Shown piece after piece: positions 998 through 19,016 of a DNA stretch of 26,290 nucleotides. Made by a program: the position numbers and the translations under genes. This DNA comes from a virus (taxonomy: Duplodnaviria; Caudoviricetes): IMG/VR virus record IMGVR_UViG_3300031977_001478, positions 1 to 26,290 of that record; one strand, written 5' to 3'. Under the pieces are notes generated by a model. The model saw only the letters and a list, made by a program, of their open reading frames with translations, did no database searches and had not been told where the DNA came from. The stretch's first letter is position 1, and each line of letters opens with the position of its first letter.

Positions 998-2101
998 ATG
1001 AAGTTTAGATTTCACGTATTAGGCCTTCCTCATACTCGTACGACTGAGGAGTATGTTGCTTGCGCGTATACACAAAAGGTTCTCAAGTTTTGCAAGATGA
1101 TGCATGAGCGTGGCCACTACATCATTCATTACGGTACGGCGGGTAGCAACCCTATCTGCGATGAAAACGTAGAGGTCCTTTCTGAAGAGACATTTCAAAA
1201 AGTCTACGGAGATCACGATTTCCGTAGCAAGTGGTTTAAGTTCTCCAATGACGACCCAGCGTATCAAGAGTTTTACCGAAGAGGCATTGAAGAGCTAGGA
1301 AAGAGAAAGCAAAAGAACGACTTTATTCTGCCTTTCTGGGGCAGTGGTGTTCGTGCTATTTGTAACGCTCATGACAAAGACTGCATTGTAGTTGAGCCAG
1401 GTATTGGGTATTCAGGAGGTCATTGGGCTCGATGGAAAATCTTTGAGTCTCACGCACTTCTCCATGCATATAAAGGACTTGGAAGTGTGTCTAGGTGTAA
1501 TATGGACTGGTATGAAACAGTGATCCCTAATTACTTTGACCTTAAAGATTTTGATCGAGGCCCAGACAAGAGAGATGACTACATGCTTTTTGTTGGAAGG
1601 GTTTATGATGGGAAGGGATTGAACATTGCAATTCAGGTTACGGAAAAACTTGGGCTAAAGCTGAAGGTCGCTGGTCAGGCGGCAAATCAATATGCAGAGC
1701 CTGGATACGAATGGCCAGATCATGTTGAGTTTGTTGGATACGTCGGAGTAGAGGAGCGAAAAAAACTCATGAAAAACGCAATGGGTAGTTACGTACCTTC
1801 TATGTATATCGAGCCGTTTGGAGGTGTTCAAATCGAAAACCTACTTTGTGGAACTCCAACCATCACTACAGACTGGGGTGCGTTCGCAGAGAACAACATT
1901 GATGGTGTAACTGGATACAGATGTAGAACCTTTAAGGACTTTGTTGAAGCCACAAGAAAAGTGATCAATAAAGAAATTAGTTACGACGAATGCAGAAGAA
2001 GGGGTGAGAAGTTTTCACTTGAGGCCATTGCCCCTAAGTATGAGAAATACTTTGAGGACGTATACAACGTTTACGAAAAGAAAGGATGGTATGAGATGTA
2101 A
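998..2101 (+). CDS. Glycosyltransferase, GT-B fold (GT4-like)
   Basis: LFVGRVYDGKG, VEFVGYV and EPFGGVQIE (ExF..E motif), followed by GTPTITTDWGAFAE and DGVTGY: a typical Glycos_transf_1 C-terminal domain. Confidence 0.9.
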   Translation: MKFRFHVLGLPHTRTTEEYVACAYTQKVLKFCKMMHERGHYIIHYGTAGSNPICDENVEVLSEETFQKVYGDHDFRSKWFKFSNDDPAYQEFYRRGIEELGKRKQKNDFILPFWGSGVRAICNAHDKDCIVVEPGIGYSGGHWARWKIFESHALLHAYKGLGSVSRCNMDWYETVIPNYFDLKDFDRGPDKRDDYMLFVGRVYDGKGLNIAIQVTEKLGLKLKVAGQAANQYAEPGYEWPDHVEFVGYVGVEERKKLMKNAMGSYVPSMYIEPFGGVQIENLLCGTPTITTDWGAFAENNIDGVTGYRCRTFKDFVEATRKVINKEISYDECRRRGEKFSLEAIAPKYEKYFEDVYNVYEKKGWYEM

Positions 2102-3005
2102 GGTTGCTTTGTTTGGTCCTAAGTCATGGGCTATAGGAAGCATAAACCTTATGCTGAAAAAGCACTTACAAAAAAACGGATTCGATGTAAAGGTTTGCGA
2201 CTGGGGCATTTACAAAGAGTCAAAAGAGGGTCTGGACTGGTGTGATGTGTTTATCACGCCACCAGATCTCCTTAAAAAAATTGTTGTGAATCTTCCCTAC
2301 GAGTACAAATCAAAAGGAATGTATGTGTGGCATTCTTTAGCAAAGATGCCAGGATACAGCTTCGAAGACTCCAACAATCACTTTTTTGTAAAGATCCCAG
2401 TTCAAAAAAATCTGCAGAACAATTACTTCGGCATCACAAAAAATACTGCCGACTCTGTAGAAAAGACATACGGCGTCAATGCTGGTGTTCTTCCTATAGG
2501 TGTTGACACAGAGTTTTGGTCAAAAAGAAGTATCACCAGGATTAAAAAGATTGGACACGTCATAGACCCTAACAACAGGAAAGAACAGTACGTAAATCTG
2601 AAAAGGCCATGGTTGTTCAAGGAGATAGCAGAAAAGGCAGGCCTTGATCATGGCGTTTGCTTTGGAAAGAGTGTTCATACTGGGTCATACATCTACAGCG
2701 ATTTTGACGCCATAGTAAACACCAGCACGCATGAAGGATTGCCTACTCCACTGCTAGAATGCGCTGCTGCAAAAATACCATTTATCTCTACTAGCGTTGG
2801 AATTGTTCCTAAGTACGCATCTGTCAAAACATTTGAAACTTCAGAAGAGGCTGCTGAGATTCTTAAAGAGTTGAACTCAGACCCTGATAAACTGAAAAAG
2901 TATGTAGATGACGTTTATGAAGATGTGGCAATGAGTAATCTATGGAGTGATCACGTAACCAAGCACTACATACCTGCTATTGAAAAAATCTTAGAAAACA
3001 AATGA
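2091..3005 (+). CDS. Glycosyltransferase, GT-B fold (GT4-like), about 304 aa
   Basis: VLPIGVDTEF and STHEGLPTPLLECAAAKIPFISTSVG (EGxP..LE motif). Start reassigned to ATG 2091 (MRCKVALFG), which overlaps the upstream gene by 11 nt, instead of the track's 2004. Confidence 0.8.
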   Translation: MRCKVALFGPKSWAIGSINLMLKKHLQKNGFDVKVCDWGIYKESKEGLDWCDVFITPPDLLKKIVVNLPYEYKSKGMYVWHSLAKMPGYSFEDSNNHFFVKIPVQKNLQNNYFGITKNTADSVEKTYGVNAGVLPIGVDTEFWSKRSITRIKKIGHVIDPNNRKEQYVNLKRPWLFKEIAEKAGLDHGVCFGKSVHTGSYIYSDFDAIVNTSTHEGLPTPLLECAAAKIPFISTSVGIVPKYASVKTFETSEEAAEILKELNSDPDKLKKYVDDVYEDVAMSNLWSDHVTKHYIPAIEKILENK

Positions 3006-17500: not shown

Positions 17501-19016
17501 TCAAGGTAATGACGGAAGCCAGGGTAGCACAGGGGCCACTGGTCCTGCAGGAAGCACAGGAGCGCAGGGGCCTCAGGGTCAGACGGGAGGCACGTTAGAG
17601 CTCCAATGGGAGAATGTAACTGAACCAGCGATTGGTCAGTTTGCCGCTCTGCATTCAAATGGGTCTGTAGTAAACGGAGTTGTTCAAAATGTAAGTACGT
17701 TAAAGTTCAGAACAGACAACATCTCTGCATTTGTAAACAACATAACAGCAAACAACTACGGGCAAGTAACTATTAGTGTGCTAAACGTTATCGATCCACT
17801 ATGGCCTGTTGATCTGGATTACATAAACTTTGAACTGACAGGAGCTCCTACTGTAGACGGTAACTTTACAAGCATACCTGTTGACCTGATTTCTCAAGAG
17901 GGTACTCATCAGTTTGTAAGCAATGTAAACTACGATACTAGATCTAGATTTACATTCTTGTACCAGTTCCAGGGAGCAACTGGACCAGGAGGAACAGCCT
18001 TGGCGAACAACGGCATTGACAACTCATTTGTTACAATCAATCCTGTTGCTGGAGGGGGGTCTTCCACAGATCTTAAAGCATTTAGTGATTTGCCATCTAT
18101 TGATTTTGACGGCTATACCTCTATTGTAGATAAGATCTCTGAGAATCCAACTAACTTCTTGATGGCGATGCAAGAGGTTCAGGAAAATCAGCACGTCAAG
18201 ATTACGTTCGATGACATTGCTGGTGGTCTTACTCTCGCTATGATTCAAGCCAACATTGATGCTGGATATGGAAACACAGCTACATATACGGGTGACCAAG
18301 ATGGAGCCTTGCTTGGTGACTTTAACGGAGATGGAGCTGTTAGTACGGTTGACCTTCTTGCGTTCCTCGTAGCCTTTGGGTCAAACCTCACTACTGGAGA
18401 AGGAACGCAAGGTATCGAATACAACAACGGATCTGTAAGATGCGTCAATGGTTCAAGCAACATTCACAGTGACACGAATGATGTGGTAATGAACCTTGGA
18501 AGCGCTACGTTTGACAATGGAAGTTTCTCAATGTCAGTAAACTTCAGCGACGATGTAATTACTATAGAAGATACTTCTGTAGTTCTGATGAGTGCTTTCA
18601 GTCAGATGTACTTTATCATTAGCAACGTACACGTTGAGGCCGAAGTAACTATGGCAGGTCAAGGATTTGCAGAGTTTGTTATTGAAATGAAGGCTTTCGA
18701 CTCTGATGACAGTGAAGTTGGAACTACATTTGAGCACAGAGTACCTCTCTTCGCCTCTCAAGCCGAAGCAGGGACGGTAAACTACATTAACGCCCTTGGA
18801 GAGACAGGTTTAAGCAACGCGGACGATGTTGTAGTCAATGTAAATATGGGCCCAATTTTTGGACTGGGGACTGATTTTAATATGGAAGATCATACCTGGG
18901 GACTATCAGACACAGAGATAACAAAAATTGAAATGAGAGTTAAGTTTGCTTCTACCCTTGGAACAATTATATCTTCAGAACTGAAGGACTTTAAATTTGA
19001 CTACAATATCGTATAA
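8559..19016 (+). CDS. Giant collagen-like fibre protein (3485 aa) with seven inserted globular domains
   Basis: One uninterrupted ORF: Val/Lys-rich N-terminus; five long Gly-X-Y blocks; inserts at about 10479-10814, 11574-11912, 13740-14090, 14145-14534, 16383-16724, 16785-17159 and 17589-17972; C-terminal region of about 345 aa with an EF-hand/dockerin-like motif. Confidence 0.9.
8820..17588 (+). repeat. Coding tandem repeat, 36-nt unit encoding [12 protein letters not shown] and variants
   Basis: Blocks at 8820-10478, 10815-11573, 11913-13739, 14535-16382 and 17160-17588. The protein unit is nearly invariant while third codon positions vary between copies. Confidence 0.95.

Follow-up and report, generated by a model that had tools for sequence, protein, structure and literature searches.

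What does a glycosyltransferase (GT) act on when its gene is joined to the packaging genes of a tailed phage? The question is raised by a contig of 26,290 nucleotides from an uncultured aquatic bacteriophage (IMG/VR record IMGVR_UViG_3300031977_001478), which was analysed over its whole length and is hereafter called the window; the replication module of this phage lies outside it. The window encodes two glycosyltransferases (GT1 and GT2) and a sulfotransferase directly upstream of the terminase large subunit gene (terL), and a very long Thr-rich collagen-like protein downstream (Table 1). We consider it probable, from comparison of gene content and gene order, that this collagen is glycosylated on Thr by a phage GT. 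That proposal was made in an earlier sequence-only reading, and is supported here by co-occurrence within the phage family, by the neighbourhoods of the GT1 family and by enzymes matched to the collagen residue. The fixed set of enzymes that the reading attached to it is not retained.

The enzyme cassette and the collagen-like protein

The genes of GT1, GT2, the sulfotransferase and terL overlap successively by 11, 4 and 17 nt, and the collagen gene is the third after terL, following those of the portal and a 124-amino-acid (aa) protein; the gene coordinates bear out the sequence-only reading on both points. Pfam and PHROG profiles likewise confirm the two GT4-like enzymes and the sulfotransferase. 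GT1 displays the features of a GT4 enzyme (GT-B fold), with E272...E280 invariant in the family alignment, and its structural model (predicted local distance difference test score of 86.5) is closest to the folds of Tll1591 and BGluT (Z about 30, 18-22% identity). A GT2-like gene lies directly 3' of GT1 in 23 of 75 viral loci, and some relatives of GT2 are fused to DUF3431/PF11913. The metagenome scan with GT2 returned one locus, with the order GT1-GT2-terL and a Thr/Gln collagen, without a sulfotransferase. The motifs PKTGGTS and VRNP, which we take to be 5'-PSB-like and 3'-PB-like, are conserved in the alignment of the sulfotransferase (P16 K17, R55 N56 P57, R60 and S63 are invariant), for which no solved relative was found at E<0.04. 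The window contig contains no adenosine 5'-phosphosulfate (APS) kinase and no hydroxylase, so the combination that defines the L230/PLOD type, a 2-oxoglutarate (2OG)-Fe(II) lysyl hydroxylase with Lys at Y, is absent from it.

The collagen-like protein consists of Gly-X-Y blocks, seven interspersed domains of ~110-130 aa and a C-terminal region. Its repeat comprises 732 triplets in 14 blocks, and the Y position is occupied by Thr in 379 of them (52%), by Gln in 185, by Asp in 134 and by Lys in 3. The commonest Thr triplets are GAT (195), GNT (144) and GST (26), and Pro occurs in just 13 triplets (2%), in agreement with the earlier description of an almost Pro-free collagen with Thr at about half of its Y positions. 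The collagen is highly acidic (285 D+E vs 33 K+R, net charge about -250), with a single salt-bridge motif KG(D/E) vs 196 occurrences of TG(A/P). A triple helix formed by the whole repeat would measure about 640 nm. An assembly artefact can be ruled out for this gene, because a second assembly (L001) agrees at 15,246 of 15,254 bases, with 8 differences, and because synonymous codons vary freely across the repeat.

No hydrophobic signal or membrane stretch was found in the collagen-like protein. From this, and from the position of the gene, the protein is predicted to be a virion fibre. Long Gly-X-Y runs together with trimer-capable end domains, encoded within the structural module, mark such fibres and are present here. 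The adjacent 124-aa protein is consistent with a fibre anchor, and is likely to be one; BppU_N is matched by 5 of the 45 members of its family (best E 2.8e-5), the window copy not being among them. The internal non-collagen domains (window 10476-17990) form the paralogous sets d1/d3 and d5/d6/d7 (E 1e-4 to 1e-9), and are shared solely with the nearest relative, G004. The C-terminal part has no usable Atlas match, and contains a 13-residue motif (window 18318-18400, residues ~3254-3280) that resembles a dockerin/EF-hand calcium loop. The O-glycosylation sequon of the Bacteroidota host, D-(S/T)-(A/I/L/V/M/T), a pattern taken over from the sequence-only reading, is indeed absent from the repeat (0 occurrences, and 6 elsewhere, all in non-collagen domains). 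Its absence adds little, because host O-glycosylation modifies exported proteins and the collagen lacks a hydrophobic signal stretch.

Glycosyltransferase and collagen genes in related phages

The Elemovirus-related terL family was represented by 164 terL contigs, which form 112 clusters at 95% terL identity. After deduplication, 52 were informative, that is, they show a GroES-like gene or a GT upstream, and a scaffold, 4 kb or 30 triplets downstream. A GT is present in 17 of 18 relatives with at least 30 collagen triplets, and in just 3 of the 30 below that number (Fisher 4e-9). The table leaves out the window and three contigs that break off within or shortly past their own Lys collagen; its 30-triplet cut-off was set post hoc, which tells against it. 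The GT counts include genes downstream and in the replication module, besides those in the slot preceding terL, and the small families c21, c24 and c36, which match no Pfam profile, were judged by eye to be GTs. On a quick terL tree, 9 independent pairs were obtained along its starred branches, of which 7.4 agree and 0 are opposite (median p 0.016).

All 11 relatives with a Thr collagen carry a GT upstream of terL, and these GTs belong to at least four unrelated families. GT1 accounts for 3 of the 11 and a family of GT-A fold for 6. Where at least 2.4 kb is visible beyond the portal, members of the GT1 family within the terL family are accompanied by a collagen in 7 of 7 cases. The slot is a variable sugar cassette that contains, among the relatives, family-GT2 enzymes with or without tetratricopeptide repeats (TPR), GT4, GT-D, RmlD, DegT and epimerases. 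The GT-A-fold family is unannotated and has no Pfam match (TM 0.74 to family-GT2 clusters; L013:4776-5606, L340:444-1187 and others); it is a candidate second collagen Thr-glycosyltransferase. In other phages, an SgtA-like family-GT2+TPR gene overlaps terL (L002/L003/L426:42-1199); the fibre of these phages has no collagen, and Ser/Thr glycosylation of that fibre by the SgtA-like enzyme is possible.

The trio of two GT4 enzymes and a sulfotransferase, expected by the sequence-only reading to travel with G-X-T collagens, does not hold as a unit. The association with GTs stands, and that with the sulfotransferase fails (0 of 10 Thr-collagen relatives; 3 of 50 relatives overall); GT1 and the sulfotransferase occur together solely in the records of the window itself. 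GT1 as a requirement for a Thr collagen is ruled out too, since none of the three near-complete records has it; G008 (93% complete) combines a collagen with 69% Thr and GTs other than GT1.

Neighbourhoods of the GT1 family

For GT1, 5,182 relatives were found, the best 120 at 60-86% identity. Among 79 loci from cellular genomes, which include Chitinophaga, Bacillota, Saccharibacteria, Chloroflexota and Desulfosarcina, and some of whose metagenome-assembled contigs may be phage, 46 contain a collagen gene, at a distance of 300 nt or less in 29, with a median of 54% Thr at Y. In matched 3.5-kb windows, a collagen is present in 20 of 56 GT1-family loci (19 without one wrong-frame match) vs 0 of 30 loci of other GT4 enzymes, the latter being the top 30 PF00534 loci from 61 genomes of one phylum only; kin in this comparison are not independent. 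A control with near-family GT4 enzymes gave a collagen in 1 of 11 loci, that one being the query's own. In the cultured cyanophages ACG-2014f (Synechococcus phage S-CAM7/ACG-2014f) and S-CBWM1, a GT1 relative is three genes from, or abuts, a collagen with 43-45% Thr. Among GT1-bearing viral records outside the terL family, 28 of 45 have a collagen anywhere, and 4 of 6 among those near-complete. Linkage between a GT gene and a G-X-T collagen gene, a mark of systems of the SgtA type, is seen in the window operon and, as adjacency, across the family.

Lysine collagens and their enzymes

A basal group of the terL family has long collagens with 28-58% Lys at Y. The four genomes of this group in which the downstream region is visible (G060, G066, G068 and G069) encode a protein of 745-761 aa in which GT4, GT25 and 2OG dioxygenase parts are fused. 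This fusion matches L230 of mimivirus and PLOD3 of humans (E 5e-22 to 1e-21) as well as COLGALT1 (1e-11), and retains the HHD motif. It was not found in the remaining 46 of the 50 genomes, one of which is a 98% complete sister without collagen. In closely related fusion loci, a collagen lies just upstream in 16 of 16, and 15 of these are Lys-dominant (many are near-copies, with 8 distinct collagens). A small 2OG-Fe(II) oxygenase (PF13640) overlaps the GroES-like gene in five Lys-collagen contigs.

Enzyme type and Y residue go together: Thr collagens accompany swappable GT4 or GT-A enzymes encoded before terL, and Lys collagens the GT4-GT25-lysyl hydroxylase fusion. Because homologues of the fusion modify collagen both in animals and in mimivirus (PMC9546862), the residue-matched fusion is the strongest indirect sign that the cassettes of the family would act on collagen, the Thr version via Thr.

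Alternative acceptors and the role of the sulfotransferase

Several observations weigh against the collagen as the acceptor. Among solved structures, those nearest to GT1 are of enzymes that use sugars, pterins or small molecules, and not proteins, as substrates. Thr richness alone is ordinary, because Thr makes up 31.6% of the Y positions over all bacterial collagens (PMC8968730, Table 1). One fusion locus, L486, has a Thr-dominant collagen (T 51%, K 21%). Viral GT1 loci outside the terL family show a collagen in just 10 of 74 fetched flanks, and 17 of the 45 GT1-bearing viral records have none anywhere, two of them at 94% and 99% completeness. The nine Nocardia GT1-family loci lack a real collagen (two apparent matches were wrong-frame); those of L197, L215 and L231 sit between what we take, from N-terminal sequence, to be EccB/EccD-like type VII secretion genes. 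Within the terL family, a GT occurs without a collagen in G002/G001 (family-GT2+TPR), G061 and G067. Rows dropped as too short include L036/L037, with four GTs and no collagen within 2.8 kb, and L351 and G003, with the GT-A family and little or no collagen in the part visible.

The GTs could glycosylate other virion proteins as a shield (capsid, portal or non-collagen fibre domains), the collagen being a separate, co-travelling cargo of a variable region. Mycobacteriophage glycans are reported on the C-termini of capsid and tail-tube proteins (PMC12619734). The collagen-free GT1 records speak for this explanation too, as do G001/G002, which encode a 1403-aa non-collagen fibre with 18% Ser+Thr. 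However, 27 of the 30 collagen-poor relatives lack a GT although their capsid genes are the same, cassette and fibre gene co-vary despite terL and the portal between them, and cellular GT1 genes abut collagen genes; we regard this explanation as improbable. The relatives' slots also hold RmlD, DegT, formyltransferase, GLF, epimerases, Capsule_synth and GT-D genes, of the sort usually found in lipopolysaccharide (LPS) loci, and the closest GT1 structures take sugar or pterin acceptors. Alteration of host LPS or capsule against superinfection, or remodelling of a host glycan or small molecule, is moreover the published view for pelagimyophage GTs (PMC7029224). Such a role is quite improbable here, given the late-operon position fused to terL and the absence of a membrane or export signal; if LPS were modified, neither the length of the collagen nor its Y residue would be expected to matter, and the nucleotide-sugar genes could just as well supply rare sugars for a glycan on the fibre. 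Hypermodification of phage DNA against restriction by the GTs and the sulfotransferase appears very improbable. It could be coupled to packaging by the terL overlap, and the closest sulfotransferase of a cultured phage, that of phiRSL1 (24% identity), has GTs, an APS kinase and a thymidylate-synthase-family gene as its neighbours; G060 and G065 carry their sulfotransferase within the replication module and apart from the collagen. Against it, the cassette co-varies with the collagen, and no match to PF00303 or Tet_JBP was found in five near-complete relatives, the Tet search being weak as it lacked a positive control. The phiRSL1 cluster itself (L519:6588-14982; APS kinase, three GTs, sulfotransferase and thymidylate-synthase-family gene) is a candidate for sulfated DNA hypermodification.

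A different question is whether the sulfotransferase belongs to the pathway, even if the collagen is glycosylated. It might be an unrelated passenger or inactive, leaving the fibre a neutral glycoprotein, and to this we give somewhat less than an even chance. PF03567 is found in relatives of the Lys group only, is optional there (9 of 16 close fusion loci) and was absent from every Thr-collagen relative searched, which speaks against sulfation as part of the Thr system, and the contig has no APS kinase. Conversely, two separate lineages, namely the window and G069, have it overlapping the final gene of a GT cassette that is linked to collagen, in G069 at the stop of the fusion. Relatives of GT2 and of the sulfotransferase at 73-77% identity have longest contigs of the same lengths (24,406 and 4,028), which hints that another phage retains both genes, although their adjacency was not directly seen. 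Sulfation of the fibre glycan is plausible from this gene arrangement, if on the doubtful side, and no general rule is supported. In the literature covered, no tailed phage with a sulfated virion glycan was found.

Proposed mechanism

Glycosylation of the Thr collagen, the preferred reading, would operate as follows. The collagen-fibre module of the phage would be optional and accompanied by an enzyme cassette whose members can be exchanged, and the collagen would be a virion fibre anchored via the 124-aa adaptor. The bare helix is expected to be unstable, given its net charge, few Pro triplets and single KG(D/E) motif, and stability would come from glycosylated Thr. GT1, a retaining GT4, would O-glycosylate the Y-position Thr in the host cytoplasm, adding the first sugar in a linkage that is probably alpha. 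GT2 would add a second sugar and so extend the glycan; the chance that it acts on the same glycan as GT1 seems slightly better than even. The sulfotransferase would possibly cap the chain.

Viral collagens are enriched in TGA/TGP, Lys-Asp/Glu salt bridges being the other stabiliser, and the peptide (GPT)10 forms a triple helix only once its Thr is galactosylated (PMC11923368). Because the window collagen lacks both Pro and salt bridges, its modification is predicted to be structurally needed; PMC11923368 leaves the timing and role of Thr glycosylation open. More broadly, aquatic Bacteroidota phages may use two interchangeable codes matched to the Y residue, a Thr code read by GT4 enzymes and an animal-type Lys code, some including the present one building a sulfate-capped, proteoglycan-like fibre of sub-micron length that engages or evades the polysaccharide-binding machinery of the host; as a whole, we hold this scheme to be speculative and unlikely.

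If the preferred reading is true, it names the enzymes behind the assumed glycan stabilisation of Thr-rich prokaryotic and viral collagens. A soluble GT4 family of the bacterial cytoplasm becomes a candidate collagen Thr-glycosyltransferase, of use for recombinant collagen without hydroxyproline. It also provides a testable alternative to the default view of aquatic phage GTs as enzymes of DNA or LPS modification (PMC10202952, PMC7029224, PMC12801897).

Genomic context of the window

The terL product is 40% identical to those of Flavobacterium Elemovirus phages, and Cellulophaga phages are also matched. The window shares with these Flavobacterium podophages the order GroES-like gene, terL, portal, structural protein and capsid, whereas Elemovirus elemoF (30 kb viewed) is devoid of the adaptor, the long collagen and the GT. 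The host is inferred to be a member of the Bacteroidota. Type IX secretion signal domains, which belong to Bacteroidota, occur in phage genes near terL in relatives (L312:3645-4940, L018:6295-7590, L413:5769-8276). One 71.5-kb record (G055; L411-L412, L409) contains two different terL-portal modules and is probably a chimeric assembly.

Table 1. Coordinates of the window genes and of the oxygenase-containing genes of Lys-collagen relatives.
Feature	Location	Strand	Basis or remark
Two overlapping HNH endonuclease ORFs	window 19-571		phrog_2255; upstream of the cassette
GT1, GT-B/GT4 glycosyltransferase; predicted initiating Thr O-glycosyltransferase	window 998..2101	+	PF00534 E 1e-19 (71 bits), phrog_3408 E 2e-164
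GT2, second divergent GT4; predicted chain extender	window 2091..3005 (ATG at 2091)	+	PF00534 E 1.6e-7 (31 bits; cut-off 26.4)
Sulfotransfer_2 family sulfotransferase	window 3002..3637	+	PF03567 E 5e-18 (66.5 bits vs cut-off 22), phrog_3347
Terminase large subunit (terL)	window 3621..5726	+	phrog_6681 E 3e-211
Portal protein	window 5748..8204	+	phrog_6547 E 9e-189
124-aa protein, likely fibre-anchoring adaptor (BppU_N-like)	window 8204..8578	+	phrog_1084
3485-aa Thr-rich, Pro-poor, acidic collagen-like protein; predicted virion fibre	window 8559..19016	+	repeat composition, position
877-aa second fibre-like protein, three short G-X-D/G-T-D triplet runs	window 19019..21652	+	phrog_26246 tail protein E 1e-5
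357-aa acidic protein, scaffold position	window 21966..23039	+	synteny with Elemovirus 'structural protein' (portal-capsid gap); kept in relatives
Virion structural protein, probable major capsid protein	window 23052..24482	+	phrog_13704 E 1e-127
Fusion directly 3' of Lys-rich collagen, with overlapping sulfotransferase	L419:15512-18363 (G069)		fusion itself L419:15512-17776; its collagen is of the G-D-K type
Fusion directly 3' of Lys-rich collagen	L435:1-2285, L420:4617-6854, L442:6058-8295		
PF13640 oxygenase	L346:6625-7173, L357:1931-2479, L419:2077-2640, L439:10281-10829		

Comparison with known systems

No tailed phage that glycosylates or sulfates a collagen fibre was found in the literature searched, subscription papers and supplements being outside the search. 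Mycobacteriophages likewise decorate virion proteins by means of phage GTs, but their glycans are located at capsid and tail-tube C-termini, without collagen, and no structural role is claimed for them (as cited in PMC12619734). Mimivirus L230/R655/R699 and the animal PLOD3-COLGALT1 pair resemble the present system in that collagen-modifying enzymes are virus-encoded, and the Lys-collagen relatives hold sequence relatives of L230/PLOD and COLGALT1. The window phage differs by its contig without a hydroxylase, by a collagen with almost no Lys in which Thr is the predicted acceptor, and by its bacterial host. The cuticle collagen of Riftia pachyptila shares a Y position occupied mostly by Thr, with glycosylated Thr in place of hydroxyproline (PMC11923368), but it is rich in G-P-T and modified by animal secretory O-glycosylation, whereas the window repeat is without Pro at X.

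A further likeness is with SgtA-BclA3 of Clostridioides difficile and with Bacillus BclA, in which a GT gene is linked to a G-X-T collagen-like surface protein and the Thr of the repeat is the acceptor (PMC7157674); in the case of F-BclA, the GT lies two genes upstream (PMC12357932). SgtA is a Mn-dependent GT-A enzyme with C-terminal TPRs, and the sugar that it attaches to Thr in collagen peptides of BclA3 is beta-GlcNAc (PMC7157674). By contrast, GT1 and GT2 of the window are phage-encoded GT-B/GT4 proteins with no TPR match, whose predicted acceptor is a Pro-poor G-A-T/G-N-T repeat and to whose gene cassette a sulfotransferase is attached. An SgtA-like family-GT2+TPR gene occupies the same slot before terL in nine relatives.

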